Shown: positions 6,101 through 41,032, counted from the stretch's first letter. The stretch is 64,000 nt of DNA from an archaeon (GCA_018651605.1 JABIDS010000009.1:19966-83965); one strand, 5' to 3'. Made by a program: numbers and translations. The notes: generated from the sequence alone by a model not told the origin.

Positions 6101-7975
6101 GATGGAGTTGATGAGGATTGGTTTGGAGATGAGACAGGGTGTGGGGTTGGGGAGTGTGCTGCGGTTGGGGAACAATTATGTATAAATTCTCAAAAAACAA
6201 ATACATGTCAAGAAGGTGTTGCAGAGTTAGATGATAAGAGTTGTGATGGGAAGGATAATGATTGTAGTGGTGATGCTGATGAAGATTATATTTCTTTAGT
6301 TACTGATTGTGGTATTAATGAATGTTTGAGAATCGGGATAACATCATGTTCTAATGGAGAGGTTTTGGATTCTTGTGTTGTTGGAACTTCTGAACTAGAG
6401 ATTTGTGATGGTAAGGATAATGATTGTGATGGGAAATTTGATGAGGGTTGTGATTGTTTATTAGGTGATAGTCAACCTTGTGGGAGTGATGTTGGTGAAT
6501 GTGTTGTAGGTTTGCAGACTTGTAATATTAATGGTAATTGGGGAGATTGTGTTGGTGGTCAGGGTCCTGTAGAGGAGATTTGTGATGGTTTGGATAATAA
6601 TTGTGTTGGAGGGGTTGATGAAGGTGGAAATAGTTTATGTGATGATTCTATTGATTGTACTGATGATGTATGTAATGGTGTGAGTGAATGTTCTTATACT
6701 GAGAATCATGGTCTTTGTGAGAATAATTTATTTTGTGATGGAGAGGAAAGATGTAGTATTGATGAAGAGAAATGTATTTCTATAAAGACTCCTAATTGTG
6801 AGGATGTTTTTTCATGTACTGATGATTCTTGTGATGAGGGTTTGGATAAGTGTGTTAGTGATGAAAATTCTGGGAATTGTTTGACTGGGCAGATTTGCGA
6901 TGTTCTTAATTTTGTTGCTCCAACTGGTTGCGGTTATGTTGAGAATTGTGTTGATAAAGATGGTGATGGGTTGTATGATTATGATGAGAATTTTTGTTCG
7001 GAGGGTGTTGATGAGTGTTCTGGAACAAATAAGGGTTATTTTGTTAGGAATCCTTTTAAGTTGAATGATTATTTGCCTAAGGTTGGAAAGTTTAATATTC
7101 CTTCGGTGAATGCAGGAAATATTTTGAATTTTGAGAATTTTAGTGTTGAGTATAATGGGACTAAAATTAATTTTGTTGATAATGTTAGTTTGGTTAAAGT
7201 GAATGCTAGCGGTTGTTTTGAGGTTATTAATTTAAGTGAGATTGTTTTGTTTGAGGATGGTAAGTTGAGTGTGAATACGAGTTTGATGGATGGATTTGAT
7301 AAGCCTGCACTGTTGAAGTTTAGTGGAATTAATTTTGAGAACCCTCAGATTTATAGGGATGATGTTAAGTGTGTTGATTGCGAGATTATTAATTATTCTA
7401 AGGGAGAATTTTTAGAGGTCATGATTACTGGTTTTGTTTCTTATGATGTTAAGGAAGGGGCTTATTGTGGGGATGGTGTTTGTAATGGTGGTGATAGTTG
7501 TTCTAATTGCGTTGTTGATTGTGGGGTTTGTTCTGCAGGTGAGGGAGGTATTCTTGGAGGAGGTTCTGGGAGTTCTGGTGGTGGTGGTGGTGGGAGTCCT
7601 AGTGGTCCTAGTGGTCCAAGTGGAGGAAATCCTAGTGGTTTAAATATAAATCAAAGTAGTGTTGTAAATGTTTCTTATCCTAGTAGTTGTGTTGAAACTT
7701 GGTCTTGTAAGGATTGGAGTGAATGTAATGAGAGTGTTCAGAGAAGGGAGTGTTCGGATGTTAATGATTGTGGGAGTGAGGAGTATAAGCCTATTTTGGA
7801 GAAGGAATGTGTTGAGAAGAATAATGTTATAAAACTTGCTGTTGCATTTTTTATATCTTTTTTTGTTTCAGGAATAGTTGCTGTTTTGATTGTTGTTTAT
7901 TTTAAGATTAGGGATAGAAGGAAGAGTGTTATTAGAGATTTGCATAAGAATGGTTATCATGGGTTTAAGTGGTGA
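143..7975 (+). CDS. giant cysteine-rich cell-surface protein (2610 aa) with MopE-like CDxxDNDCDG metal-binding-type repeats, LamG/ConA-like blocks and C-terminal TM anchor
   Basis: Uninterrupted 7.8 kb ORF. N-terminal hydrophobic segment LTYILFVLLFVLVGFLFSF. Hundreds of Cys in repeated CxxxC and CDNKDNDCDG..DE units. Two blocks with a LamG-like signature (IYIDGVL...VDDVKIWNRALSSSEV). Gly/Ser/Pro linker GGGSGSSGGGGGGSPSGPSGPSGG. C-terminal TM LAVAFFISFFVSGIVAVLIVVYF followed by basic KIRDRRK. Confidence 0.85.
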   Translation: MVLEKKDVIGHIELTYILFVLLFVLVGFLFSFDYVVEEFVKEGVESEGVGVLEGGVEVGVGSEGSGLGRDGFDGDEKKSGFFKRIFEGLFGKEEVLFSPPSIDSVSPLNGLSKTGEEQIFTIEYSDPEGWEDLIYGYVIFGADSSDSRIFLEYRHTTKFGLVNDKGIMTYHCDPESDNFLSNSYVKLDCSKSFVSGSGDTMTLTLALTFKEPFIGNWKILLRTKDISDKDKGKWVPMGDWDVEEGEVIIVPVKPLPQMRALYGGINELRIGEGGIDAYTDMFRSYGINTFITKHSGLRNNFIYADRYPNSPENFYESILDQAEWAEQKGFVFFPIIDFVHRVNDPDDLDGDEITVSSITDNYVVFSDGSAGSQVTPFDETYWDYLTDIAVRLARLSENYGKYRVDGLMFDFELYKSVEFGEPRKFDRTFGFEDSTFNNYLVDRGLVELNSPPKESNQRAERYDWLIDNGRWTDYYSYLEDTIEKLAENMKSEVRKVNPDFVLGFYPTPEPLYLIDILDGFGSEDDPAVLLDTFTYAISYMGYSYGGEVVPTGISRNRLPSGYFDVTKRYHPERNKPAYAYYLGGTIAAAYDPLDYENKLYNIGNDGNGYWIYQATFFLNGFRPDLPGWGLPCNNGIRSFNCPNADAHQGAVDHYLNEIKNANLRLGWEPCVLSNGGDEICDNKDNDCNGKVDDGDLCDNGNYCDGVETCSSGSCVDGSAVVCNDGIDCTDDFCDEVNDKCDVDESSSSCGCPNGLDSECSNDDVCDGIESCNTETLVCIDDVDLDCDGSDVCIDYSCDAVLGCQESFNSADCNDGVDCTLGDKCNLGDCSGTPYDSECEFFWQSCNPVSGCEQASCKDCKDCDTWLGSCSYNECHNECDWGDGCYFEKDPLGDDCVPLSEGCSSVGSCGDYSVEECVSDLCDKAPVGGNGCELGENRFVIMSFSQYLDDFADEWHQLVQQTYIQNEKVINKIYIDGVLRNTEKFEDAGGLVNNYANLKLAVDLNGEVDDVKIWNRALSSSEVLDDNNGVLVSDSLIAHYNFNEGSGVGVVDSVGDNDGVLNGDAVRIDGGIIDIGTSGYIEIKETSVMDISLTDEYTISGRFKLSSEETAGSRYFWSDYSWMNSGFIAIIFPRDQKFYYYNTHKDLSVCVDASYCGDGVCGFESGENCGGCEEDCGCSGETPHCSSGNCVECERPSDCDDGLYCNGVESCVDGSCVDGSVINFDDRVGCTMDSCDEVNDVIVNVVDDGLCQNGDWCDGVESCDAVLDCQDEVDPDCSDVYSCSVDSCSEGSVVGDNLGVCDYDTSGCGCLVDGDCDDSNDCTDDFCNAQRECDKTNKINGFVCDDGNLCTEDDKCSVGVCSGSARDCSSLSDQCNDGVCDLDDGLCKAEVKINGLSCDDGLFCSVSDVCGNGVCGGSSRDCSSFNDQCNDGVCDDVLNLCKADAKVNGLDCDDEVDCTVEDKCSFGDCKGRVDDNECEDWESCNPVSDCGQVTCSSCKECDSWLSGCDYNECHNECDWGDGCYFDSKFGENCVSLVDGCSSVDSCEDYSSEECVSDLCGKAPSSNGCELDGDDCVAVSYCGDGVCDVGSEDCSSCVEDCSCSGNVDLKQCSSGSCVECLEVDDCDDDKSCTNDLCTNNVCVFPEIDSDGDGYGACLGIGFDCDDGDRDVNPGVEESCNNVDDDCDGLTDESLSQATSCGVGLCLGNVGVETCSLGSWIGDTCDEDDGAVDEVCNNADDDCDGSTDEGCACSLGDTQPCGSDVGECVAGSQVCDINGIWGDCVGGQGPVVEICDNKDNDCSNGIDDGLSRGTSCGVGACSGNSGVETCSAGVWGSDTCDDKAGAVSDANCNGVDDDCDGSKDEDYVSVDTSCGVGECLGNSGSWSCVSGNEVDSCDEYAGKVEESCDDETGFDGLDNNCDGNVDLDCESICDKDGDGYTNNLICLPACLIYGWNCLSLDCDDSNVNINPREDELCNGIDDDCDGGTSDGVDEDWFGDETGCGVGECAAVGEQLCINSQKTNTCQEGVAELDDKSCDGKDNDCSGDADEDYISLVTDCGINECLRIGITSCSNGEVLDSCVVGTSELEICDGKDNDCDGKFDEGCDCLLGDSQPCGSDVGECVVGLQTCNINGNWGDCVGGQGPVEEICDGLDNNCVGGVDEGGNSLCDDSIDCTDDVCNGVSECSYTENHGLCENNLFCDGEERCSIDEEKCISIKTPNCEDVFSCTDDSCDEGLDKCVSDENSGNCLTGQICDVLNFVAPTGCGYVENCVDKDGDGLYDYDENFCSEGVDECSGTNKGYFVRNPFKLNDYLPKVGKFNIPSVNAGNILNFENFSVEYNGTKINFVDNVSLVKVNASGCFEVINLSEIVLFEDGKLSVNTSLMDGFDKPALLKFSGINFENPQIYRDDVKCVDCEIINYSKGEFLEVMITGFVSYDVKEGAYCGDGVCNGGDSCSNCVVDCGVCSAGEGGILGGGSGSSGGGGGGSPSGPSGPSGGNPSGLNINQSSVVNVSYPSSCVETWSCKDWSECNESVQRRECSDVNDCGSEEYKPILEKECVEKNNVIKLAVAFFISFFVSGIVAVLIVVYFKIRDRRKSVIRDLHKNGYHGFKW

Positions 7976-10426: not shown

Positions 10427-11631
10427 TATATTTCCTCACTAAAATTTATATCCAATACCTTACCTAATCCTAAAAGCAATCTTGATTCAAAAGTTGCTGA
10501 TTTTTCGTCTTCTTGTTTTTCTAGGGTGAGGGCTTCCATGAGGGGGGAGATAAGTTTGTTGTTGTTTGAGGGGTTTTCTTTTTCATAGGTTTTAATTAAG
10601 GTTTCTTCTATTTTTTCTTTGTTGTGGTTTGGGTCGCTGAATTCTATTTGTAGGTCTTGTCTTTCTACTTCAAGTTTTGAGGTGTTTTTTAGAAATGAAT
10701 ATGCATTTTGTTTTTCTATGAAGTCTTGTATTTCTTGAAATTTTATGTCTGTGTATTTTCCTTGTTTTAATATTCCGAAAAGTTTTAAGAGGATTATTTT
10801 ATCTTTGAGTTCTCTTTTTTCTAGTTCTTTGATTATTTTTTCTGTTGCTTTAATTGCATTGTCAATTTCTATTTTGATTAGTTCTACTGGTTTTATTTTT
10901 ATTTCTTTTTTTGTTACTTTTGTGTAACCTGCGACTTCTATTATGTAAAATGCTCCTTGTTTTAGTTCTTCTAGTTCTTTGAAGTTGTTTGGGAATGTTG
11001 GTCCTCCGTAAACTGCAGGTTTGTTGTTTACTTCTTGGTTGAAGTCTATGTGGATGTGTCCTAAAGCGTAGTAGTCTGCTTGAGGGAGTTGGTCTAAGGG
11101 AATTGAGTCAATTGGTAGATTTTGTGCAGCTTCTTTGACTGTTGTGTGGAGCATCAGTATTCTGAAGTTTTCTGAATATGGCTGATTTATTTTTATTTTT
11201 CTTAATGATTCTACTTCGAGTCCTGATTTTTTTCCAGGGTATCCATAGATGTAACATTCCTTGTCTCTTATTGGTTCTAGTGTTATTTCTTGAGTTTCTT
11301 GGTTTTCTTGATATTTGCAGATTTGACAGAATCCTGCTTTTTCTAGGACGTCTAGGAATGTTTTTCCTGAGACAGAATAATCATGTGAGCCTGCGATGAT
11401 GTAGGATTTTATGTTTGCGTCTTTTAGTTTTTTGAATTCGCTGAAAGCGAATTTTAGGGTTTCTATTGATGGGAATGCTGAATCAAATAAGTCTCCTGCG
11501 AATAATATGAAATCTACTTGTTCTTCTATTGATGTATTAATTGCATAGGTGAATGATTGTCTGTTTAGTTCTTGTAGTTCTGGTTGGCGCCATCCTCCTA
11601 AGTGTGAGTCTGCTATGTGTGAGAATTTCAT
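10426..11631 (-). CDS. mre11: DNA repair nuclease Mre11 (calcineurin-like phosphoesterase)
   Basis: Motifs MKFSHIADSHLG, GDLFD and AGSHDY are typical of Mre11/SbcD. Operonic with rad50. Confidence 0.9.
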   Translation of the reverse strand: MKFSHIADSHLGGWRQPELQELNRQSFTYAINTSIEEQVDFILFAGDLFDSAFPSIETLKFAFSEFKKLKDANIKSYIIAGSHDYSVSGKTFLDVLEKAGFCQICKYQENQETQEITLEPIRDKECYIYGYPGKKSGLEVESLRKIKINQPYSENFRILMLHTTVKEAAQNLPIDSIPLDQLPQADYYALGHIHIDFNQEVNNKPAVYGGPTFPNNFKELEELKQGAFYIIEVAGYTKVTKKEIKIKPVELIKIEIDNAIKATEKIIKELEKRELKDKIILLKLFGILKQGKYTDIKFQEIQDFIEKQNAYSFLKNTSKLEVERQDLQIEFSDPNHNKEKIEETLIKTYEKENPSNNNKLISPLMEALTLEKQEDEKSATFESRLLLGLGKVLDINFSEEI

Positions 11632-20301: not shown

Positions 20302-20434
20302 TTGGGTTCCTTGAGAATAGAGTTAGGGGGTGGTTTGTTATGACTGTGGAATTGTAAAGTTTTATAGAAACCTTTTTAAAGAATTTTTATTAAGATAAGG
20401 AGTTATAAAAAGTTAAATTAACATTAAAAATAAA

Positions 20435-20746
20435 ATGGAATTTTGTCCGAAATGTGGTTGTGTATTGGTTGAGAAAAAGAATAAGACTTTTGGTTGTCCT
20501 AGGTGTAGTTATAAGTCTAAGGATAAGGTGAAGTTGGAGACTTCTGAGAATATTGAAACAAAGAAAGAGATAACTGTTATAACTGATAATAGTGTTGATG
20601 TTTTTCCTGTGATAAATGCGACGTGTCCTAAGTGTGATAATAAAGAGGCTTATTTTTGGACGAGTCAGACTCGGGCTGGAGATGAAGCTGAGACGCGGTT
20701 TTTTAGGTGTACTAAGTGTCGGCATACATGGCGAGAGTATCACTAA
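20435..20746 (+). CDS. tfs: transcription factor S / RNA polymerase subunit M (TFS, zinc ribbon)
   Basis: N-terminal CPKC…CPRC and C-terminal CPKCDNKEAYFWTSQTRAGDEAETRFFRCTKCRHTW (TFIIS-type Zn ribbon with acidic hairpin). Confidence 0.85.
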   Translation: MEFCPKCGCVLVEKKNKTFGCPRCSYKSKDKVKLETSENIETKKEITVITDNSVDVFPVINATCPKCDNKEAYFWTSQTRAGDEAETRFFRCTKCRHTWREYH

Positions 20747-20784: not shown

Positions 20785-21471
20785 ATGAATAAGTTTAAAA
20801 CCAAAAATTATGAAATAATAAGTAAAGGAAAAATTACTGAAAAAATTATAAAAATATGTAAGGATTATTATAAAACAAATAAATTATTTTTTAATAAAGA
20901 TGGACCTTATTTAAAAATTATAATAACAAATACTGAGGAGGAATTTAAGAGATTGACTAAAAAATTTTACTCTCCTTGGGTAAAAGGAGTAAGTTTGAAA
21001 GGAAATAGGGTAATTTTAAGGGGTCCTGAATTGTATAAAAAAACTTATAAAAAATTTAAGGGTACTCAAAATCCTCAATTGTTGTTGACCCATGAAATTA
21101 ATCATATCTTTGCTTATCAAATTAATTTATATCGTGGACCTTATTGGTTTACTGAAGGATTAGCAACATATGTTGCAAAACAAATTCCTGGAAAGAGTTA
21201 TAAGAAAAGTTCAAAAATAACTAAGGAAGAAGCAAAAAGATTGATGTTTTATAGATTTATGCATAAAAATTTGAAACAAGATATGTATGTGGTTCATTAT
21301 AAGGCAATTGATTATCTTATAAAAAAATTTGGTAAAAAGAAATTATTAAAGTTAGTTAATTCTTATTCTAGAAATCTAAATAAAAAAAAGTATTTGAATT
21401 TGTTTAATAAGATATATGGAATTTCCTATGGGGATTTTATTAATGAATTTATAAAAGATACTAATTTTTAG
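20785..21471 (+). CDS. hypothetical Lys-rich protein with HExxH (HEINH) motif, possible metallopeptidase
   Basis: 228 aa, A-rich coding strand unlike native genes. LLLTHEINHIFAY. Confidence 0.45.
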   Translation: MNKFKTKNYEIISKGKITEKIIKICKDYYKTNKLFFNKDGPYLKIIITNTEEEFKRLTKKFYSPWVKGVSLKGNRVILRGPELYKKTYKKFKGTQNPQLLLTHEINHIFAYQINLYRGPYWFTEGLATYVAKQIPGKSYKKSSKITKEEAKRLMFYRFMHKNLKQDMYVVHYKAIDYLIKKFGKKKLLKLVNSYSRNLNKKKYLNLFNKIYGISYGDFINEFIKDTNF

Positions 21472-21656
21472 TTGTAGTATTTGGTGGGGGTATCACTTCG
21501 CCAATAACTTTAACAACTCTTTATCTTGAAGCATTACTATGGCTATTGCTAGTTTTCTTTGTTCATCTTTTTGTTTTTCGATTTTTGAATCGTTTCTTGC
21601 TCTGGTTTTTAATACTTTTTGGTATTTTATTTTTTTCATTTTATTTTTTGTTGTTT

Positions 21657-22205
21657 TTATTTATTTAATATTATATCAATAATGTAATCTTTAAGATTTT
21701 TTGAGTTTTTATTAATATATTTTTTTATCCATGTTTTTGCGCTTTTGAATGATATTTTGCTATTGTGGGATACTAGTTCTCTGATAAATATATCTGTAGG
21801 GTTTATCTTGGGGATTTCTAATTTATATCCTTTTGTTAGTAAGTGCGCCTTTGCTGTAATAAATGCGGCTCTTTTATTTCCATCTATAAAAAAATGTCCT
21901 TTTTTTGCAATTTCGTTAATGATAATTATTGTTATCCCTGATATGTCATTTGGAAAGTTTGATTCATAACTAATTATGTTATATGAGGCATTGTAGATTC
22001 CTCCTTCATCTCTTATTCCTTTATCTTCTTTTATCTCCATTGCGCCCTCATGACTTTGTTTTATTAATCTAATCATACTTTCTATTTCCTGTTTTGAAGG
22101 CTTTTTTCTTTCTTTATTCCAATAAGGGCTATTACAATTAGGACAAAATCTAGGACTTTCTTTTCTTGTTTTCCATTCATGATTGCATCTTAGACATTTA
22201 CTCAT
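21657..22205 (-). CDS. Fic/Doc-family protein (Doc-type toxin) fused to N-terminal zinc ribbon
   Basis: N-terminal CLRCNHEW…CPNCNSPYW. Doc-type motif GHFFIDGNKRAAF (HxFxDGNKR). No Phd-like partner ORF upstream. Confidence 0.65.
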   Translation of the reverse strand: MSKCLRCNHEWKTRKESPRFCPNCNSPYWNKERKKPSKQEIESMIRLIKQSHEGAMEIKEDKGIRDEGGIYNASYNIISYESNFPNDISGITIIIINEIAKKGHFFIDGNKRAAFITAKAHLLTKGYKLEIPKINPTDIFIRELVSHNSKISFKSAKTWIKKYINKNSKNLKDYIIDIILNK

Positions 22206-22359
22206 TTTATTCTATATAGTTTAATTAAGCTATATAGGTATATCTAACTATATAAATGTATTGATTGTTGATCTAGGGGTTATTAGTTTTATATTAACTA
22301 CTCTATTACAATAAAAATTTTCCTACTAAATTTAAATAATATTAATTCTTGTATATTGT

Positions 22360-22800
22360 ATGGGAATTTTGGGTAGGATTCGGGAATTGGAAAAAGGTTT
22401 GGGTGCAATTGTTGTTGTTCAGGAAGTGGAGTATCATAAGGAAAAAGTAGGTGTGTTGAATTTTGAAGATGAATGGTGTTCGGATTTTAGGAGAGTTGTT
22501 GATAAGCCAAGGATTACTCTGCCGGATGTTTTGAGAAGAAAAGTGGCAAAAGATGAATTAAGGAAAATCTATAATGATTCTAAATGTTATCAACTTATTA
22601 GAAAGTATTTGTGTGAAAAGGTTGTGTGGCGAGTTGGGTTAAGGGATGTGGAAAGGAGGAGAGAAGAGTTAGATATGAAGAAGCAGGCAGATGAATATTC
22701 TGGGTTGTTGGAAGAGGAAAGAAGGTTGAAGAAGATTCCTAAAAAGATAGTTGTTAATCTTGAGGGTAGGTCTTATGAATTTAATGATTTTGATTTTTAG
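22360..22800 (+). CDS. hypothetical protein
   Basis: 146-aa charged ORF with native-like composition. Confidence 0.4.
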   Translation: MGILGRIRELEKGLGAIVVVQEVEYHKEKVGVLNFEDEWCSDFRRVVDKPRITLPDVLRRKVAKDELRKIYNDSKCYQLIRKYLCEKVVWRVGLRDVERRREELDMKKQADEYSGLLEEERRLKKIPKKIVVNLEGRSYEFNDFDF

Positions 22801-22847
22801 AGTTGTTACTAGTTGAATATATTGTATAAATTAAAAATTAATTAATA

Positions 22848-23027
22848 TTATCTTTTCTTAGAAGTTTTCTTAGCTTTCTTTTTCTTGACAGGTTTTTTCT
22901 TTGATTCAGTTATAGCTGATTCAAGTTTTTCCTGTTGTTCTGCTAATCTTAGAATTTGATCTTTTATCTCTAAAATATCTTTTCTAACTTCGCTGAATGA
23001 TTTTTTTAGGTTTGTTTCGATACTCAT
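22848..23027 (-). CDS. possible small basic coiled-coil protein (~59 aa; below ORF-track cutoff)
   Basis: Manual translation MSIETNLKKSFSEVRKDILEIKDQILRLAEQQEKLESAITESKKKPVKKKKAKKTSKKR. Coordinates approximate. Confidence 0.2.
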   Translation of the reverse strand: MSIETNLKKSFSEVRKDILEIKDQILRLAEQQEKLESAITESKKKPVKKKKAKKTSKKR

Positions 23028-23146
23028 TTTATTATGTTGTTTTTAGTTATTGGTAGTATATAAAGGTTTTGATTAGTGTCATTTTAAAGTGGTATGTTTG
23101 AATGAAATATAGAAACCTTTAAAAATAACTATTATGGAGTTAAATT

Positions 23147-23773
23147 ATGAATAATGATACAAACTATTGGATAGAAATGAGTAATTTCCCTGAATCATAT
23201 TCTCTTTTGTTCAGAGAAGAAGAAAGATTATTAGATAAATATATCGGAGATCATGCAAATGTATTAGATCTGGGGTGCGGAGATGGTAGATCCTTAAAAC
23301 AATTATCACAAAAAACAAAAAATTTAGTTGGAGTTGATCATGATAAAAAAATAGTAAAAAAAGCTAATAGGGATTTACCTAATATAAAGATAATTTATAG
23401 CGAAGGGACAAGCCTTCCATTTGATGATGGATATTTTGATAATGTTTTATGTTTAGGAACTTTTACTAATTTGGGTGATGAAAGGATTAAAGTTTTGAGT
23501 GAAATGAAAAGAGTTTTAGATAGAAATGGTTCAATAATTATAACTGCTTATTCTGAGGATGCATTAGAAGACAGGTTAAAATTGTATGGAAGTAGCAATG
23601 TTGAAATAGAAGAAATAAAACCAAATGGAACTGTTTTGTTTAGAGATTCTGTAGATTCAATTTCAGAACAGTTTTCAAGAAGTGAATTAGAAACTATAAT
23701 TAGTAAGGCAGGTCTTAAGATAATGGAACTTAATAAAGCTGGAATTGTATATTCTGGTGTTCTTGGAAAATAA
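23147..23773 (+). CDS. class I SAM-dependent methyltransferase
   Basis: Motif I VLDLGCGDGRS, post-I acidic residue, motif II/III region. A-rich, foreign-like composition. Confidence 0.7.
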   Translation: MNNDTNYWIEMSNFPESYSLLFREEERLLDKYIGDHANVLDLGCGDGRSLKQLSQKTKNLVGVDHDKKIVKKANRDLPNIKIIYSEGTSLPFDDGYFDNVLCLGTFTNLGDERIKVLSEMKRVLDRNGSIIITAYSEDALEDRLKLYGSSNVEIEEIKPNGTVLFRDSVDSISEQFSRSELETIISKAGLKIMELNKAGIVYSGVLGK

Positions 23774-23829
23774 AGATTAATTTATTTGAAACCAAAGATT
23801 AAAAAAGGCTTTTTTTCTTATTAATTTAT

Positions 23830-23904
23830 GGCTTGTTAGCTCAGTCTGGTTAGAGCACTAGACTCTTAATCTAGGTGTCGGGAGTTCAAATCTCCCACAG
23901 GCCA
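23830..23904 (+). tRNA. tRNA-Lys (anticodon CTT), 75 nt, no encoded CCA
   Basis: Manual cloverleaf: acceptor GGCTTGT/ACAGGCC; D arm GCTC-AGTCTGGTTA-GAGC; anticodon arm CTAGA-CTCTTAA-TCTAG; T arm GGGAG-TTCAAAT-CTCCC; discriminator A. Confidence 0.85.
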
Positions 23905-23975
23905 TTTATATCTTAACACTAAATCTAAGATGTAGAAAATTATGAAGGATTAAATACATTTAGATATTTTGTAGC

Positions 23976-24719
23976 CTACTTGATCTTCTCACCTGACTCC
24001 CAAAGCATATAAAAATATTTTTTTAAACTATCAGCTAAAGAATCATTTTTAATCCATAGTGATAAATATTTATCTCCTTCAACAATCCTTATAGTAACAT
24101 CACTATCATCAATAATAGTAAATTTTGTAGTAATAAGAGGAATTTTTCTAATTTCAGCATTAATTTTCTTCCAGACTTTTAATTTATCGCTAGTTGCCTC
24201 CTCATCACTTGTTAAAATCTTAATCTTGACATTATCTTTAGCATTTTTTTCATAAGAATCGATATGAGGTTTATATGTTGAAAGTTCAGAAATTGTCAAC
24301 CATTCCCTTCTAACATTCTTATGAAGACTCACAGAAAGATTAAGATAATTCTTATAACCTTCAACAATTTTTATTTTATCAATCACTTCATCCTTGTTAA
24401 TCATAGCAAGTTCCCCTAATTCATTCATAATCCTGTCAGAATTATTAATAAAATTATCTAGTTCTTTTTCTTTTTTTTCTTTTAAGTAATTAAAGATTAT
24501 CTTAGGTGCAACTGAAACGAACTTTTTCGGACTACCGTCATACTTTTTTACAAATCCTTTGGCAGTTAAAGACTCTAATACTGAATATATCTTACTATTT
24601 GGAATTAAAGATTCCTTTGATATCTTATATGCAGTTGATATCCCATTTTTTATTAAATATATGTATGCCTTTGATTCATTAGTTGTCAAACCAAATTGCT
24701 TTAATTTCTCCATAATCAT
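23976..24719 (-). CDS. TrmB-family transcriptional regulator
   Basis: N-terminal wHTH LKQFGLTTNESKAYIYLIKNGISTAYKISKESLIPNSKIYSVLESLTAKGFV matches the TrmB signature. 247 aa. Confidence 0.7.
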   Translation of the reverse strand: MIMEKLKQFGLTTNESKAYIYLIKNGISTAYKISKESLIPNSKIYSVLESLTAKGFVKKYDGSPKKFVSVAPKIIFNYLKEKKEKELDNFINNSDRIMNELGELAMINKDEVIDKIKIVEGYKNYLNLSVSLHKNVRREWLTISELSTYKPHIDSYEKNAKDNVKIKILTSDEEATSDKLKVWKKINAEIRKIPLITTKFTIIDDSDVTIRIVEGDKYLSLWIKNDSLADSLKKYFYMLWESGEKIK

Positions 24720-24772
24720 AACTACCCAAGGGGGTTACTATTATATAAATATTTCTATTTATTATTTTTTTC

Positions 24773-25462
24773 ATGTCAAAAAAACTTATAAACCAACATG
24801 AAGAATTAAAAGAACAAAATATACGTAAACCACTTTATCCTTGGGCTCCAGAAATATATAATAATATGATGAACCCAATTTCACTTGAACCAATTAAAGA
24901 AAGAGCATGGAATCACTTTCTTTGGAACCTTGGTTTAACAATTACCTGGCCTATTACTGCACCCGGTTCATTTATTTGGGCCATGCAAAGAAATCTAAGA
25001 GGTAAGGGGCATTTTTCTGATGGATATATTGTTCTAGGATGTTTAACAGCACCCTACATCTTAGCTACAGAATCTAAAAGTTTCTTAACCAAAAGAACTG
25101 TAGCATTAAAATTTTCAAATATTGATGAATTATTAGAAGAAGAAACTATTTTAACAAAACCTGATGGAATAAATCCGGGGATTCGTTTTAGTACAAGAGA
25201 TAGAGGTAAAGACAGCCCTTATAGATTTGGAGACTCTTCTTCGAATACTGATAGATATGGATTTCTAGATTTAATTTTCCCAGATAACTTAGCTTTAGAT
25301 GATTTTTCAGCAATGTATTATGCAACTGCTAATAGAGAAAATCCTGGAAATCTGTATTTAGATTGTGAATATTTTCTAAAAGTAAATCCAGATGATACAA
25401 GAAGACTTTATGAAGAATTTGAAAAAGTGAGAAAACCTGGAGCAAATGATTTAAGAAAATAA
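24773..25462 (+). CDS. hypothetical protein
   Basis: 229-aa ORF between the two tRNA-Lys copies. No recognisable motif. Confidence 0.45.
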   Translation: MSKKLINQHEELKEQNIRKPLYPWAPEIYNNMMNPISLEPIKERAWNHFLWNLGLTITWPITAPGSFIWAMQRNLRGKGHFSDGYIVLGCLTAPYILATESKSFLTKRTVALKFSNIDELLEEETILTKPDGINPGIRFSTRDRGKDSPYRFGDSSSNTDRYGFLDLIFPDNLALDDFSAMYYATANRENPGNLYLDCEYFLKVNPDDTRRLYEEFEKVRKPGANDLRK

Positions 25463-25603
25463 GTAAAGTTAGTACTATCAACTGTTTAAGATAATTTTTT
25501 CTAAAATAGACACTGTGTCATATATAATCCAAAACTCTTAATCCAACACATATATCAATAAGAAAATTAAAAAACCATAAATACCTCATAAATTCATACT
25601 CAT

Positions 25604-25678
25604 GGCTTGTTAGCTCAGTCTGGTTAGAGCACTAGACTCTTAATCTAGGTGTCGGGAGTTCAAATCTCCCACAGGCCA
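25604..25678 (+). tRNA. tRNA-Lys (anticodon CTT), second identical copy
   Basis: 75/75 identical to 23830-23904. Confidence 0.85.
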
Positions 25679-25782
25679 TTTATGGCAGAGATTTTCACTC
25701 CAAGGAGTTTCCATAAAGGATGACTCAAAGGTTATTTGAGCCGCAAATCTCATCAGGCCATTTAAATTAATGTTAATAATTA

Positions 25783-26229
25783 TTAATCTCTTGAAATTAT
25801 TGAATTGAAGTCTAAATCATATGTTTTTCTTTGAATAACCTCAGAAGTAGTATCCGGATGTTTCTCCCTTGCATCTGAATAAATTACAGATAATTGATTC
25901 ACAAATTCATCATAATTTAATACTATTTCAGAACCTATTATATTTGGTACTCCAGATACAAAAGATAAGAATTGAAAATGATTTCTATAATTATCATTTC
26001 CTCTCATAGCTTCTTCAAACTCATTAGGAGAATTTCCGATAGTATCAACTGATTGAAGGACTTTATGAGCAAATTGTCCCACTACGGTTTCAATAGATTC
26101 ATTAATCCTTCTAATCTCTGATTCTTGTTTTTGAGTTACCATACGGATAATCTTCAGATATTTACTATATAAATCCTTCGATTTTAACAAATATACTAAA
26201 AAATAATCACTGTGCCATATATAATCCAA
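25783..26229 (-). CDS. hypothetical protein
   Basis: 148-aa ORF immediately followed by a tRNA-Lys 3' fragment. Confidence 0.4.
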   Translation of the reverse strand: MDYIWHSDYFLVYLLKSKDLYSKYLKIIRMVTQKQESEIRRINESIETVVGQFAHKVLQSVDTIGNSPNEFEEAMRGNDNYRNHFQFLSFVSGVPNIIGSEIVLNYDEFVNQLSVIYSDAREKHPDTTSEVIQRKTYDLDFNSIISRD

Positions 26230-26231
26230 TA

Positions 26232-26273
26232 CTCTTAATCTAAGTGTCGGGAGTTCAAATCTCCCACGGGCTA
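26232..26273 (+). other. tRNA-Lys 3'-half fragment (anticodon loop to acceptor 3' strand; att-like remnant)
   Basis: ctcttaatctaagtgtcgggagttcaaatctcccacgggcta vs tRNA ctcttaatctaggtgtcgggagttcaaatctcccacaggcca. Preceded by a ~40-bp direct repeat (cactgtgYcatatataatccaaWactcttaatc) also present at 25507-25548. Confidence 0.75.
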
Positions 26274-26294
26274 TTTTTATTTTTAGAAATATTA

Positions 26295-26483
26295 TTAACC
26301 TAAATCTTCTAAGGACTTCATAGCTTCATCAAATCTTTTTTCTGCCCTTACTGCAAAGAAATTTAAATCATGAATCCATTCTTGAGTTCTTGAATTATAA
26401 ATTGGAACTGCTAATCTTACTTCTTCACCAGCTCTTAATCTTCTTAATACCGGTTCTATGTAACAACAATCATAATCTGTCAT
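26295..26483 (-). CDS. hypothetical small protein (62 aa)
   Basis: ORF in a compositionally distinct (more C on plus strand) stretch after the tRNA fragment. Confidence 0.3.
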   Translation of the reverse strand: MTDYDCCYIEPVLRRLRAGEEVRLAVPIYNSRTQEWIHDLNFFAVRAEKRFDEAMKSLEDLG

Positions 26484-26522
26484 GAAATATTAGGGGGTTT
26501 GTAATTTATTAATATTTGGATA

Positions 26523-26819
26523 CTAAGATAGTCTATCTCCTTTTGCCCAATAATAAACTCTTCGAACATATTCATGCCAAGGAGTTCTTAATGAGTATTT
26601 ATTACATTCTTTATGGGAAGGACCTATAGACATTTGAGAACATGTCGTGGGTCTTCCGTAAGCTATTTCTCTATTCCTACGTAGTTCACATTCAGGAGTA
26701 GCTAATAATTCTTCGCCACTTTCTGGCAAGTTCTTAGGTGTATGTGCAGGAGCATCCCTTATAATAGTTTTTCTAATCCTCTTGGCAGATATATCTTCAA
26801 GACTTTCCTCTTTTGTCAT
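26523..26819 (-). CDS. hypothetical protein (98 aa)
   Basis: ORF with composition distinct from native genes. Confidence 0.35.
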   Translation of the reverse strand: MTKEESLEDISAKRIRKTIIRDAPAHTPKNLPESGEELLATPECELRRNREIAYGRPTTCSQMSIGPSHKECNKYSLRTPWHEYVRRVYYWAKGDRLS

Positions 26820-26928
26820 ATTGAATAATAGAAATAATATTATTTAAACATTTGTTATATAAAATAAGTAGTGAAAGCTAGAAATATTAATGAGATTAAA
26901 CTAAAAGAACAAAAAATAAAAATAAAAA

Positions 26929-27234
26929 TTAATGTACTGTTCTTTTTATAGCGTCGATATGTTCTGCGATTTCTTCGCCTTTTTTTGTCAACTCTATTAA
27001 TTTTATTCTACCTTTTTTTTCAAATTTCACTAGTCCTAATTCTTCTAGTGTTTGTAGTATCTTTACTGCATGTGAATACGTACAGTCTACTTCTTTCGCT
27101 AATACAGAACCGTATCTTGCCTTAGATAGTTTTCTTAAAGCTACCAACATTAGTGCTGGTTTCCTTCTGAAAAAAATGTCAAAATTATCTTTCATTTTAT
27201 TGTGTTTCAATGAGTGCTTTTTTATGGTACTCAT
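26929..27234 (-). CDS. small winged-helix DNA-binding protein (putative transcriptional regulator)
   Basis: LAKEVDCTYSHAVKILQTLEELGLVKFEKKGRIKLIELTKKGEE resembles the wHTH recognition helix plus wing of MarR/ArsR-like small regulators. Confidence 0.5.
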   Translation of the reverse strand: MSTIKKHSLKHNKMKDNFDIFFRRKPALMLVALRKLSKARYGSVLAKEVDCTYSHAVKILQTLEELGLVKFEKKGRIKLIELTKKGEEIAEHIDAIKRTVH

Positions 27235-27329
27235 TTGAATCTATATATTTAAGTCATATATTAGCTTATAAAGCTTTCGTAGTAAAAATTTAACCAAGCA
27301 GTAACAAATTATTTTTACTTAATTTTTGA

Positions 27330-29257: not shown

Positions 29258-30544
29258 ATGATAGATATAAAATTAATTAGAGAAAATCCTGAAGTTGTTA
29301 AAGAGAATATTAAGAAGAAGTCTCAGGATGATAAGTTGGGGTTTGTTGATGATGTTGTTAAGTTGGATGCTGATTGGCGGAAGTTGAAGTATCGGGTTGA
29401 TGGTTTGAGGAGTGAGAGAAATAAGATTTCTATTGAGGTTGGTAAGGCTAAAAAGGTTAAGGATGAGAAGTTGGCTAAGGAGTTGATTAAGCAAGCGGGG
29501 AAAATTCCTGAGGAGATTAAAAAGATTGAGATTAAGGCAGATAAGTTGGCTGTTAAGGTTAAAGAGATTATGATGCAGATTCCGAATATTATTCATTCTT
29601 CTGTTCCTATTGGAAAGAATGATAAGGAAAATGTTGAGGTTAAGAAGTATGGGCGGATTCCGAAATTTAGTTTTGATGTTAAGAGCCATGTTGAGATTGG
29701 AGAGAGTTTGGGTTTGTTGGATTTTGATACGTCTGCAGATGTTTCTGGTAATGGTTTTTATTTTATGAAAGGTAAGTTGGCTTTGTTGAATATGGCTTTG
29801 ATTAATTTTGCGCGGGATTTTATGATTAAGAAAAAGTTTGAATATGTTGAGCCACCTTTGATGATTAAGAAAGAAGTTTTGGATGGAGTTTATTCTAGTG
29901 CTGAGATTGATGCGATGGCGTATAAGGTTGATGGTGAGGATTTGTATTTGATTGCGACTTCTGAGCATCCTTTGATTGGGCAATTTATTAGTAAGACTTT
30001 GCAGAAAAAGGATTTGCCTGTTTTGCAGACTGGTTATTCAATGTGTTTTAGAAAGGAAATTGGAAGTCATGGGATTGATGAGAAGGGAATTTATCGGACG
30101 CATCAATTTAATAAACAGGAGATGATTGTGATTTGTGAACCTGAGGATTCTTATAAATGGTATGATGAGATGTTAGGTTTTAGTGTTGATTTGTTTAAAG
30201 AGTTGGAGATTCCTTTTCGAATTTTGGAATGTTGTTCTGGTGATTTAGCTGATTTGAAAGCTAAAAGTTGTGATTTGGAAGCTTGGTCTCCGAGAAGGGG
30301 AGAGTATTTTGAAATTACATCTCTGACGAATATGGAAGCTGCTCAGGCTAGAAGGTTGGGAATTCGTGTGAGTGATGGTAAGAAGAATTATTTTGCTCAT
30401 ACCTTGAATAATACTGTTATTGCAACTTCTAGGGTTTTGGTTGCTATTTTGGAAAATAATCAGCAGAAAGATGGGTCGGTTAAGGTGCCGAAGGTTTTGT
30501 GGAAGTATTGTGGGTTTAAGGTTATTGGTGGGGAGAAGGGTTAA
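29258..30544 (+). CDS. serS: seryl-tRNA synthetase
   Basis: N-terminal coiled-coil arm (MIDIKLIRENPEVVKENIKKK…). Class II core with GNGFYFMKG and TSEHPL motifs. 428 aa. Confidence 0.9.
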   Translation: MIDIKLIRENPEVVKENIKKKSQDDKLGFVDDVVKLDADWRKLKYRVDGLRSERNKISIEVGKAKKVKDEKLAKELIKQAGKIPEEIKKIEIKADKLAVKVKEIMMQIPNIIHSSVPIGKNDKENVEVKKYGRIPKFSFDVKSHVEIGESLGLLDFDTSADVSGNGFYFMKGKLALLNMALINFARDFMIKKKFEYVEPPLMIKKEVLDGVYSSAEIDAMAYKVDGEDLYLIATSEHPLIGQFISKTLQKKDLPVLQTGYSMCFRKEIGSHGIDEKGIYRTHQFNKQEMIVICEPEDSYKWYDEMLGFSVDLFKELEIPFRILECCSGDLADLKAKSCDLEAWSPRRGEYFEITSLTNMEAAQARRLGIRVSDGKKNYFAHTLNNTVIATSRVLVAILENNQQKDGSVKVPKVLWKYCGFKVIGGEKG

Positions 30545-39395: not shown

Positions 39396-40217
39396 ATGAC
39401 ATATGTAATAAAATCTACAGGTGAGAAAGAGAGGTTTGATAGGAATAAAGTTCGGAAGAGTATTCTTCATGCTGGGGCATCTCCGGAGTTGGTTGATAAG
39501 GTTTTGGGTGTGATTGATAAGAAGAGATATGATGAGATTCCGACTGAAAAGATTTTGGATATTGTTTTGAAGTCTTTGGCACGGAATAAGGGGATTGCAG
39601 ATAGATATGATTTGAAGAGGGCGATTATGCAGTTGGGGCCTTCAGGTTTTCCGTTTGAGAGATTTTTTGCAATGGTTTTAAAGAATTATGGATATGATGT
39701 GAAGGTTGGGAGTGTGTTGAAGGGGAAAAATATAACTCATGAGATTGATGTTTTTGCTAAAGGTAAGAATGGTTCTTTTATGGTTGAATGTAAATATCAT
39801 AATAAATGGGGGATTCATACTAAGGTTAAGATTCCGCTTTATGTTTATGCTCGGTTTCTTGATTTGAAGAAATATTTTGATGAGCCTTGGATTGTTACTA
39901 ATACTAAATGTACCCCTGATGCTTTGAATTATGCTAGAGGTGTTAAGATGAAAGTTACTTCTTGGAATTATCCTAAGGGAAGTAGTTTGAGGGATTTAAT
40001 TGAAGGTAAGAAACTTTATCCTATTAGTGTTCTTCGTGGGGTTAGTGTTAGGACTAAAGAAAAGTTATTTGAGTCTGATATTTTTTTAGTTAAGACTTTG
40101 GTTGATTTAGATATTTATGAGTTGAAGAAGAAGACTAAATTTAGTAAGAGATATTTGAGAAGGATTATTGGGGAGGCTAAGGATGTGTTGGGTGTTGGGG
40201 TTGTGAAGGTTGGTTAG
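39396..40217 (+). CDS. ATP-cone domain protein fused to Mrr-like (PD-(D/E)xK) restriction-endonuclease domain
   Basis: N-terminal ATP-cone (MTYVIKSTGEKERFDRNKVRKSI…). Central FERFFAMVLKNYGYDV…EIDVFAKGKNGSFMVECKY resembles the Mrr catalytic core (FE…Y.V…D.GIDV…QCK). Confidence 0.55.
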   Translation: MTYVIKSTGEKERFDRNKVRKSILHAGASPELVDKVLGVIDKKRYDEIPTEKILDIVLKSLARNKGIADRYDLKRAIMQLGPSGFPFERFFAMVLKNYGYDVKVGSVLKGKNITHEIDVFAKGKNGSFMVECKYHNKWGIHTKVKIPLYVYARFLDLKKYFDEPWIVTNTKCTPDALNYARGVKMKVTSWNYPKGSSLRDLIEGKKLYPISVLRGVSVRTKEKLFESDIFLVKTLVDLDIYELKKKTKFSKRYLRRIIGEAKDVLGVGVVKVG

Positions 40218-40273: not shown

Positions 40274-41032
40274 ATGGATAATATAGAATCTCAAACTAAG
40301 GCTGTTACAAATAAAATTACAACTGGAAGTCAGGATTTAAACATTTTTCTTCAAGGAGGTTATGAGAAAGGAATAATAACTTTACTTTATGGTCCTGCGG
40401 CCTCTGGAAAATCAAACATTGTAACATTGGCTGCATGTAATCAAGCTAAAAAAGATAAAAAGATAATCTTCATAGACACAGAAGGAAGTTTTTCAGTTGA
40501 TAGAGTTAATCAGATGTCAAATAATTTGCCAGAACAAATTTTAAAAAATATTATAATTCTTAAGCCAACTAATTTTAAGGAGCAACAAAATTCTTTTATA
40601 ACTTTAGCAAATGAATTAAAAAAATCAGAAAATATTGGGTTGATAATTGTGGATAGTATAACTATGCTTTATAGATTGGAATTTGCAGAAGCAAGAAAAA
40701 AGGGTTTGGAAGAAATACAAAATATAAATAGTGATTTGGCTAGGCAGATGAAGGCACTTTATGAAGTTGCGAGAAAACGAGATATTGCAGTTTTAGTAAC
40801 CTCTCAGATATATTCAGGATATCTTAGTGAAGAAGATTGGCCTGCAGGAAAGCAGGCTAAAACAAATGTTGTTGGCGGGGATATATTGAAGTATTGGAGT
40901 AAATGTATAATTGAATTGGAAAATAAAAATGGGCGGAAAAAAGCGATTATTCAGAAACATCGTTCATTGCCTGAGAAAACTTTGAACTTTGAGATTGTTA
41001 ATGAGGGTGTGCAGAAAAGGGGTTGGTTGTGA
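40274..41032 (+). CDS. RadB/KaiC-like RecA-superfamily ATPase
   Basis: Walker A LLYGPAASGKSNIVTLAA. Walker B LIIVDSITMLY. ~250 aa with RadB-like organisation. A-rich (foreign-like) composition. Confidence 0.65.
   Translation: MDNIESQTKAVTNKITTGSQDLNIFLQGGYEKGIITLLYGPAASGKSNIVTLAACNQAKKDKKIIFIDTEGSFSVDRVNQMSNNLPEQILKNIIILKPTNFKEQQNSFITLANELKKSENIGLIIVDSITMLYRLEFAEARKKGLEEIQNINSDLARQMKALYEVARKRDIAVLVTSQIYSGYLSEEDWPAGKQAKTNVVGGDILKYWSKCIIELENKNGRKKAIIQKHRSLPEKTLNFEIVNEGVQKRGWL

Follow-up and report, generated by a model that had tools for sequence, protein, structure and literature searches.

The tRNA-Lys(CTT) locus between about 20.8 and 27.3 kb of a 64,000-nt stretch of archaeal DNA (GCA_018651605.1 JABIDS010000009.1:19966-83965; the whole stretch is referred to as the window, and positions are counted from its first letter) is a fixed, apparently no longer mobile, decayed variable region that results from several recombination events at the tRNA gene. 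Between a gene for transcription factor S (TFS) and one for a winged-helix-turn-helix protein (wHTH), it contains two intact tRNA-Lys(CTT) genes, two partial copies of the same gene and a direct repeat, here called D4, which leads into one of the partial copies. The chances are about even that the junctions of these copies derive from an integrase whose elements later decayed, the main rival being an endogenous duplication followed by a deletion; the integrase origin of the junctions and the order of the events are what we infer from the present arrangement.

tRNA genes were called with ARAGORN and Rfam, and protein domains with Pfam and PHROGs. The tRNA copies and the repeat are arranged as follows:

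23830-23904, + strand: tRNA-Lys(CTT) copy 1 (ARAGORN; Rfam 69.6 bits)
25503-25546, + strand: D4 copy 1, a non-tRNA arm of 30 nt, then ACTCTTAATCcAA, which repeats the anticodon-loop region
25604-25678, + strand: tRNA-Lys(CTT) copy 2 (ARAGORN; Rfam 69.6 bits), spanned with both flanks by contig L096 from another sample
25679-25764, + strand: ~65 nt of spacer rich in hairpins; after it, 21 nt that repeat the T-loop-to-3'-end part of the tRNA and its trailer (at 25744-25764; by alignment)
26200-26243, + strand: D4 copy 2, joined directly to the tRNA 3' fragment
26231-26276, + strand: pseudo-tRNA 3' fragment, identical to 25636-25681 at 43 of 46 positions (93.5%)

The two tRNA genes, which an earlier note made from the sequence alone had described as identical, are called by both ARAGORN and Rfam and agree at 100% over 82 nt (23828-23909 = 25602-25683), beyond which the similarity is weak and gapped upstream and absent downstream; both are presumably expressed. 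Homology between their upstream regions was considered and rejected (a TATA-like 9-mer, ATTAAAAAA, is all that they have in common, which is not conclusive). The 3' fragment, also claimed before, matches with E 2e-11 in one comparison and 1.7e-14 in another, begins at the last base of the 5' strand of the anticodon stem (ACTCTTAATC...), extends 3 nt beyond the tRNA end and is closest to the tRNA-Lys of its own species. It is not called as a tRNA by Rfam or ARAGORN, and a 5'-half copy is absent from the whole 64-kb window. The additional copy of the tRNA 3' terminus holds as well: 25744-25764 reads CAAATCTC-AT-CAGGCCATTTA, the corresponding stretch of the tRNA being CAAATCTC-CCA-CAGGCCATTTA, and the copy scores 13 in local alignment, the null windows averaging 6.8 (empirical p ~0.01, which is conservative because those windows contain real tRNAs).

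The direct repeat, the last of these earlier claims, was recovered as a 33-mer that occurs exactly twice (25511-25543 and 26208-26240; 0 expected from 100 shuffles); at 81% identity it covers 62 nt (25485-25546 vs 26183-26243). Downstream of ACTCTTAATCcAA, D4 copy 1 runs into unrelated DNA and then into the promoter of tRNA copy 2, and the 10-mer ACTCTTAATC stands both in D4 copy 1 (25534-25543) and in tRNA copy 2 (25636-25645), 102 nt apart. D4 (62 nt at 81%) and the fragment (46 nt at 93%) act as one duplicated unit. The arm with its 10-13-nt anticodon-loop core is thus found twice, once with the tRNA 3' half and once with unrelated DNA, which is the expected remnant of a conserved recombination site. 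Rfam has no family for the 3' fragment, the D4 repeat or the spacer (matches at chance level only). A C/D-box or conserved small RNA in the spacer after tRNA copy 2, for which an 11-mer in common with the related locus L011 was considered, was rejected, since the 11-mer recurs in no other locus and is attributable to chance.

That the duplication exists and is fixed in the population sampled is shown by 17 independently assembled contigs, which come from at least 10 other samples and match the window collinearly at 99.5-100% identity. Contig L002 covers 20983-25644 with tRNA copy 1, and L096 covers 24551-26347 with tRNA copy 2 and the 3' fragment; every junction of the locus is spanned by assemblies of other samples, and no alternative junction was seen in the 17 contigs. 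Among these contigs there is no empty site of the same species, only the integrated arrangement. A false duplication made by misassembly or by a chimera of strains would fit several short contigs (L003, L005, L006, L008 and L097) that end in or at the tRNA repeat, as contigs are expected to do at any repeat, but SPAdes and MEGAHIT assemblies of other samples span tRNA copy 1 with both flanks (L001, L002, L004 and L007, at 99.9-100% identity) and L096 spans tRNA copy 2 and the fragment at the same identity, so that an artefact is refuted and we give it practically no weight.

The source of the DNA was sought through the seryl-tRNA synthetase (SerRS, 29258-30544), the closest matches of which (77-55% identity) are in metagenome-assembled genomes labelled Woesearchaeota, Pacearchaeota, Nanoarchaeota and Nanobdellota; the window is therefore from a DPANN archaeon. 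The host, with a G+C content of ~32%, appears to be a tiny, Woesearchaeota-like DPANN archaeon with a reduced genome. The SerRS itself is of bacterial type (after DPANN, the next matches are Clostridia, Bacilli and other bacteria at 53-58% identity), which suggests an old bacterial acquisition common to this DPANN group.

Between the two anchor genes the following genes are found, some of the proteins being deposited at NCBI (HOE04_01535, HOE04_01545):

20435-20746, + strand: TFS, left anchor (Zn_ribbon_TFIIS; 46-85% amino-acid identity in ~35 loci, adjoins a signal peptidase gene)
20785-21471, + strand: 228-aa HExxH protein, accessory, weakly Peptidase_MA-like (PF13485, 24.8 bits vs a cut-off of 32.4)
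21657-22205, - strand: 182-aa protein with Zn-ribbon and Fic/Doc-like part, accessory (PHROG 577, Doc-like toxin, E 2.8e-8)
22360-22800, + strand: 146-aa orphan, no family match in Pfam or PHROGs and no homolog in related loci
22848-23027, - strand: small basic protein of 59 aa, in synteny with relatives, where it immediately precedes tRNA-Lys
23147-23773, + strand: 208-aa class I S-adenosylmethionine-dependent methyltransferase (Pfam Methyltransf_11, E 1.7e-18)
23976-24719, - strand: 247-aa TrmB-family regulator (Pfam TrmB helix-turn-helix and DUF7436), between tRNA copy 1 and the 229-aa gene
24773-25462, + strand: 229-aa protein, 65-67% identical to L178 10001-10621 and to a protein of L184
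25783-26142, - strand: ORF119, an open reading frame (ORF) for a 119-aa orphan (148 aa from a TTG at 26229; homolog search)
26295-26483, - strand: 62-aa orphan ORF, no families and no homologs at the locus
26523-26819, - strand: 98-aa orphan ORF, no families and no homologs at the locus
26929-27234, - strand: 101-aa wHTH, right anchor, 73-93% identical in 80 metagenome loci

A comparison with related loci (numbered L...) identified the ancestral frame of the region. The signal peptidase, TFS, tRNA-Lys(CTT), wHTH, a 204-aa protein and SerRS form a recurring block in relatives including L011, L013 and L178, the order signal peptidase, TFS, tRNA-Lys, wHTH, SerRS being kept in ~36 related DPANN loci, and the wHTH gene adjoins SerRS and the 204-aa gene in the 80 metagenome loci. 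In the 35 loci containing both the TFS and the wHTH anchor, the gap between these ranges from 232 to 5029 nt, and that of the window, with 6182 nt, is the largest. The earlier note had proposed to look for an empty site with a single tRNA-Lys in related genomes, and such compact loci exist: in L154, with its gap of 232 nt, TFS, tRNA-Lys and wHTH follow one another with nothing else between, and a single tRNA-Lys with a compact or different interval is found in L154, L165, L135, L142 and L178 (all different species from that of the window). Two intact tRNA-Lys genes were found in no relative among the loci compared, which have at most one. The closest syntenic relative is L178 (SerRS 86%, wHTH 90%), with the order TFS, 101 aa, 71 aa, 57 aa, tRNA-Lys, 206 aa, endonuclease III (EndoIII), three small ORFs and wHTH, one tRNA-Lys and no fragments; the 59-aa ORF and the 229-aa gene of the window have their orthologs in its 57-aa and 206-aa genes. 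By this synteny tRNA copy 1 holds the ancestral position relative to these two genes.

Homologs of the interval genes were looked for at the locus in ~90 related loci, where 2 of 12 have them (the 59-aa ORF and the 229-aa gene). The 59-aa ORF is 67% identical to L178 9589-9696 and 51% to its homolog in L144, and occurs also at L013 5582-5785; in L184 the homolog of the 229-aa gene is followed by EndoIII. EndoIII lies in the interval of ~15-30 relatives and is absent from the entire 64-kb window, the 62-aa and 98-aa ORFs occupying the place where relatives have EndoIII and other small ORFs (a remnant of EndoIII inside the 98-aa ORF was rejected, the tblastn match with E 1.1 not being significant). 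The methyltransferase sits between the 59-aa ORF and tRNA copy 1, where it is absent in L178 and L013. The intervals of relatives carry other accessory genes (Fic/DOC, AbiEii, Bro-N, AAA_14/DUF4143, methyltransferases, MFS, Toprim). tRNA-Lys is inverted relative to wHTH in 8 loci, and in the 32 related loci compared for tRNA fragments at least 6 contain 16-28-nt copies of the 3' end of their own tRNA-Lys; short 3'-end copies analogous to 25744-25764 are present in L173, L134, L112, L013 and L133. The recurring 3'-end copies and the flipped orientation indicate that tRNA-Lys is a recurrent recombination site in this lineage, and the comparison supports a lineage-specific variable region centred on it.

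The strand composition of the window was used as a further guide to recent changes. The + strand has 61.6% G+T and a mean GC skew of ~0.33 with no switch over 64 kb; third codon positions have T ~0.5, G ~0.3 and C ~0.01 in + strand genes, and A ~0.55, C ~0.2 and G ~0.04 in minus-strand genes. The bias is a property of the DNA strand and not of the coding strand, and it is weaker in relatives (G+T 0.54-0.57). The earlier note had taken an A-rich coding strand as a sign of foreign genes, which is wrong because native minus-strand genes are A-rich too, and reading the bias in that way leads to wrong island boundaries. We therefore computed GT3, the G+T content at third positions read on the + strand, with 58 genes outside the interval as reference (0.742 +/- 0.091). 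Six consecutive genes at 23147-26819 have GT3 values of 0.52, 0.39, 0.48, 0.47, 0.56 and 0.48, the six lowest of the window (z = -2.4 for the methyltransferase and -3.0 for ORF119), and the genes at 20785-23027 lie in the native range (z from -0.2 for the 146-aa orphan to -1.6 for the 228-aa HExxH protein). Atypical composition thus stands for the genes at 23.1-26.85 kb, to which the deviation is confined, and the start of the island, formerly put at ~20.8 kb, is moved by composition to ~23.1 kb, with 20.8-23.0 kb within the native range. TrmB has the minimum of the window (GT3 0.39 on the + strand); its own coding strand has the composition of the G+T-rich strand, as expected of a resident-type gene that was inverted or relocated.

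Elsewhere in the window, the strongest native strand bias is that of a single 2610-aa ORF at 143-7975 (+ strand). A protein with an ATP-cone and an Mrr-like restriction-endonuclease fold (39396-40217) adjoins a RadA/Rad51-like ATPase (40274-41032) with low strand bias (z = -1.7), possibly another recent arrival.

From these data we propose that the ancestral locus was compact and would have comprised the signal peptidase, TFS, (the 59-aa ORF), tRNA-Lys, (the 229-aa gene, EndoIII), wHTH and SerRS. The methyltransferase, TrmB, ORF119, the 62-aa ORF and the 98-aa ORF would be recent arrivals or relocations on both sides of the tRNA, EndoIII would have been lost from the locus, and tRNA-Lys would have ended up as two intact and two dead partial copies. 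Past site-specific recombination of a tyrosine-integrase-like kind most likely left the partial copies as att-type scars. One of the crossovers may have taken place at the anticodon loop, where the D4 arm joined through the core ACTCTTAATC to the tRNA 3' half resembles an attR and D4 copy 1 resembles an attP or a hybrid site from tandem accretion; a second one, at the T-loop, would account for the copy at 25744-25764. Later, the recombinase genes as well as most of the element bodies would have disappeared, a decay like that of cis-mobilizable elements (CIMEs). The 82-bp perfect direct repeats could permit homologous loss of the 1.77-kb segment between them.

This proposal draws on what integration at tRNA genes leaves behind in bacteria and archaea, i.e., a regenerated tRNA and a displaced fragment (PMC8371274, PMC9897764, PMC4383910); in archaea, tandem integration and the loss of the integrase after integration are documented (PMC8371274, PMC9897764, PMC4383910), and bacterial CIMEs are decayed elements that keep their att sites and show tandem accretion at tRNA genes (PMC5704250). 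In the window an intact tRNA gene stands at one end (both copies scoring 69.6 bits), displaced partial copies in direct orientation run from a loop through the 3' end (26231-26276 and 25744-25764), and an empty site is found in relatives, if of different species. Starts in the anticodon loop and in the T-loop, both continuing through the 3' end, are the canonical att sublocations (per PMC8371274).

Several results weigh against an integrase origin. No recombinase domain was found with Pfam or PHROGs in any ORF of at least 59 aa at 20.7-27.3 kb, an interval without free intergenic space for an integrase remnant, nor was an integrase found in 10 further ORFs of the window, so that its absence, as read in the earlier note, is upheld; in the equivalent intervals of relatives, none was detected in 112 ORFs searched together or in the 20 largest searched singly. 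In 32 relatives there is no attL/attR pair at tRNA-Lys on the kilobase scale, nor does any relative show an intact element at this tRNA, and a viral contig collection gave no match for the tRNA-fragment pattern, the D4 pattern or the four proteins tried (229-aa protein, TrmB, 98-aa ORF and methyltransferase). The integrase gene that a tRNA island should contain is thus missing, and the DNA between the putative att sites is not wholly foreign: a simple model of an element between attL and attR fails, because a gene between the tRNA copies, that for the 229-aa protein, is in synteny with L178 (and with L184). A second intact gene is not expected of canonical integration, which yields one intact and one partial tRNA; the core in D4 copy 1 is identical over only 10-13 nt, and the insertion of the methyltransferase upstream of tRNA copy 1 counts against simple integration. 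TrmB, formerly listed as cargo of mobile type, has homologs (45-51%) that are chromosomal in Nanoarchaeota/Woesearchaeota, located in two other DPANN genomes between the tyrosyl/tryptophanyl-tRNA synthetase and M16/M24 peptidases, and is a chromosomal-type gene and not typical mobile cargo. Finally, no gene in L178 has a weaker strand bias than the ortholog (206 aa) of the 229-aa gene, for which reason low strand bias is suggestive of recent arrival or rearrangement but is not proof of foreign origin. The decayed or remodelled integration hotspot of the earlier note is therefore sustained in part: the variable region, the empty sites and the lack of an integrase agree with it, and the native 229-aa gene inside and the second complete tRNA do not.

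Two further proposals were rejected. A split integrase of the SSV type finds no basis in ORF119/148, which abuts D4 copy 2 but has no similarity to integrases, and no ORF crosses D4 copy 1. A unique order of events could not be upheld either, since tandem accretion, unequal crossing-over and an element-borne tRNA each need at least one unsupported extra deletion or insertion.

The occurrence of the 10-mer ACTCTTAATC both in D4 copy 1 and in tRNA copy 2 bears on the main rival, which we regard as possible but rather unlikely, and which needs no mobile element at any time. A segment with the D4 arm, the promoter and tRNA-Lys would have been duplicated by unequal or illegitimate recombination, and one copy would have lost the 102 nt between the ACTCTTAATC repeats, the gene turnover being the ordinary flux of insertions and deletions in a reduced genome. 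Removing the 102 nt between the 10-mers (at 25534 and 25636) of the unit from D4 copy 1 to tRNA copy 2 exactly yields the junction of D4 copy 2 with the fragment, a deletion junction at a short direct repeat; the divergences fit one event (D4 11-19%; fragment 6.5% against a constrained partner), a native gene (229 aa) lying between the tRNA copies fits as well, and so does the lack of an integrase in the ORFs tested in the window and in the intervals of relatives. Partial copies are known from relatives, too (a decayed second tRNA-Lys in L135 and a 5'-end copy in L169; see below). A duplication with deletion has to assume, however, that a 10-13-nt copy of the anticodon loop stood by chance 92 nt upstream of the tRNA (1e-4 to 5e-3 as a rough estimate), no trace of a duplicated 229-aa gene is present, and the homology of tRNA copies 1 and 2 does not continue through the flanks past 82 nt. 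Nor does it explain why both partial copies start in loops and end just past the 3' end, or why the composition of six genes is anomalous.

The missing EndoIII and the unrelated flanks of the identical tRNA copies would also be compatible with the import of a cassette, an improbable explanation in our view. According to it, the stretch from D4 copy 1 to ~26.85 kb (tRNA copy 2, ORF119, the fragment, the 62-aa and the 98-aa ORF) arrived as one piece from a close relative or from a small replicon with tRNA-Lys and an old att scar and replaced EndoIII, gene conversion keeping the tRNAs identical. EndoIII follows the homolog of the 229-aa gene in L178 and L184 yet is missing from the window, and the genes of the block are all orphans without strand bias. 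Against this, neither a donor nor a related cassette turned up (there is a single distant homolog for ORF119 and no viral match for the D4 and tRNA-fragment patterns), the fragment is nearest to the tRNA of its own species, and the insertions of the methyltransferase and TrmB around tRNA copy 1 remain unexplained by a single cassette.

In at least 9 related loci, one or two tandem modules of 95-136 nt follow directly after tRNA-Lys(CTT). Those located in the comparison are:

L013 6032-6165, + strand: single module
L134 8361-8485, - strand: single module
L112 598-726, - strand: single module
L143 ~10843-10971, + strand: single module
L169 ~1847-1940, - strand: single module
L158 11063-11317, - strand: two tandem modules
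L099 2992-3245, - strand: two tandem modules

The modules align over their full length (mean column identity 65%; nhmmer E 1e-25 to 5e-4), and each comprises 3-4 hairpins, the stems of which vary in sequence and remain complementary (compensatory changes), and ends in a 12-17-nt copy of the 3' end of the tRNA-Lys of the same genome. They are absent from compact loci, match no Rfam family, and may represent remnants of att arms, miniature elements that target the tRNA, or an RNA linked to it. The spacer and T-loop copy of the window (25679-25764) have an analogous layout, yet the module profile gives no match there.

Other peculiarities of tRNA-Lys were seen in these relatives. A decayed second tRNA-Lys with two insertions of ~50-65 nt lies just upstream of the intact one in L135 (2297-2515, - strand), and a 14-nt copy of the tRNA 5' end stands 50 nt upstream of tRNA-Lys in L169 (~2130-2145, - strand). 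Long introns follow the anticodon of tRNA-Lys(CTT) in L158 (11318-11498, - strand; ~100 nt) and L169 (~1950-2080, - strand; ~63 nt); ARAGORN overlooked these intron-bearing genes or gave similar ones in L111, L115 and L151 the wrong labels 'tRNA-Stop' or 'tRNA-???'.

The pieces in L135 and L169, together with the modules, mark tRNA-Lys as a recurrent site of partial self-duplication in the lineage. It is conceivable, if doubtful, that an unrecognised process without an element-borne integrase targets tRNA-Lys(CTT) and plants modules of 95-136 nt (none, one or two in tandem) that end in the 3' end of the genome's own tRNA. The modules could then be a new miniature tRNA-targeting mobile element or a tRNA-linked structured RNA, and the T-loop copy, the duplicated tRNA and the anticodon-loop junction of the window would be by-products of that process and not of classical integration.

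Split tRNA genes occur in Nanoarchaeum equitans, and the 3' fragment of the window might be suspected to be functional in a similar way, i.e., as the 3' half of a split tRNA or as a regulatory or tRNA-like RNA transcribed from the TATA-like CATATATAAT in the D4 arm. This is very improbable. The TATA-like box lies ~25 nt upstream of the fragment, a run of T follows it, and the DPANN relatives L158 and L169 have the unusual long-intron genes mentioned above; but the window has two intact genes for tRNA-Lys(CTT) and neither a 5' half nor a complementary leader or trailer, the fragment begins at position 31 and not 38, it has substitutions in the anticodon and acceptor stems, and no Rfam family matches it. 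A split tRNA gene of the Nanoarchaeum type was rejected, given the two intact genes and the lack of a 5'-half copy in 64 kb.

As to the remaining genes of the interval, the calls of methyltransferase, TrmB and wHTH made in the earlier note were confirmed; of two others, the HExxH protein has only a sub-threshold Peptidase_MA match, and the Doc-like call comes from PHROGs only (no Pfam match at 0.01). The 228-aa HExxH protein has no homolog in the ~90 related loci, and the Doc-like protein none at the locus in relatives. The 229-aa protein matches no family in Pfam or PHROGs; only two other homolog clusters were found, and an AlphaFold2 (AF2) model from a 3-sequence alignment is unusable (pLDDT 33). 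ORF119 has, besides the gene of its own species, one homolog (37% identity) among 1.84 billion representatives. The promoters of TFS (20363-20398) and of the methyltransferase (23108-23143) share TATAGAAACCTTT... (36 nt, 78% identity), either a strong consensus promoter or a copied one.

If the proposed history is true, the locus would be a worked example of a tRNA-anchored recombination hotspot in a DPANN archaeon, a group for which descriptions of mobile elements and of genome dynamics are scarce. It would also be a rare instance of a duplicated tRNA gene in a minimal-genome archaeon, since single-copy tRNA sets are the rule in archaea (PMC9897764). The extreme bias between replication strands serves as a built-in clock that flags recent or inverted genes independently of GC content. 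As a decayed scar with no evident active mechanism, the locus itself is of modest direct importance.

Among known systems, the split tRNAs of Nanoarchaeum equitans are similar in that they occur in a DPANN archaeon and in that the window has a stand-alone 3' portion of tRNA-Lys after a promoter-like box, but the window differs in its intact genes, the lack of a 5' half and of complementary joining sequences, and another break point. Tandem elements and integrated plasmids without an integrase in Methanococcales and Thaumarchaeota (PMC8371274) provide a precedent for integrase loss and for tandem integration at one tRNA; these remnants keep recognisable plasmid or virus genes, whereas the cargo of the present locus is without such a signature except for the weak Doc-like match, which lies outside the compositional island. 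Islander-type tRNA islands (e.g., PYG1 of Pyrococcus yayanosii, with 44-bp repeats; PMC4383910, PMC9897764, PMC8371274) resemble the locus in the intact tRNA with a displaced direct 3' fragment of ~46 nt from the anticodon loop, in accessory or orphan cargo of atypical composition and in its absence from relatives; unlike them, the locus lacks an integrase in the ORFs tested, has a second complete tRNA, a syntenic native gene inside and genes inserted also upstream of the tRNA, and measures only ~3.7-6 kb. The locus may also be likened to CIMEs and tandem accretion in the ICESt1 family of Streptococcus and IME_Sag2603_tRNAlys (PMC5704250), which have lost their integration genes and kept their att sites, and which, inserted one after another at one tRNA, even a tRNA-Lys, form arrays where decayed cargo lies between the att copies. 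These differ in being bacterial, with integrases and excision demonstrated; the att-like sites of the window are known from sequence alone, and no autonomous partner element is known in DPANN. In sum, the locus is a known kind of feature in a poorly studied lineage, the module family of its relatives and the extreme strand bias being the more unusual observations.

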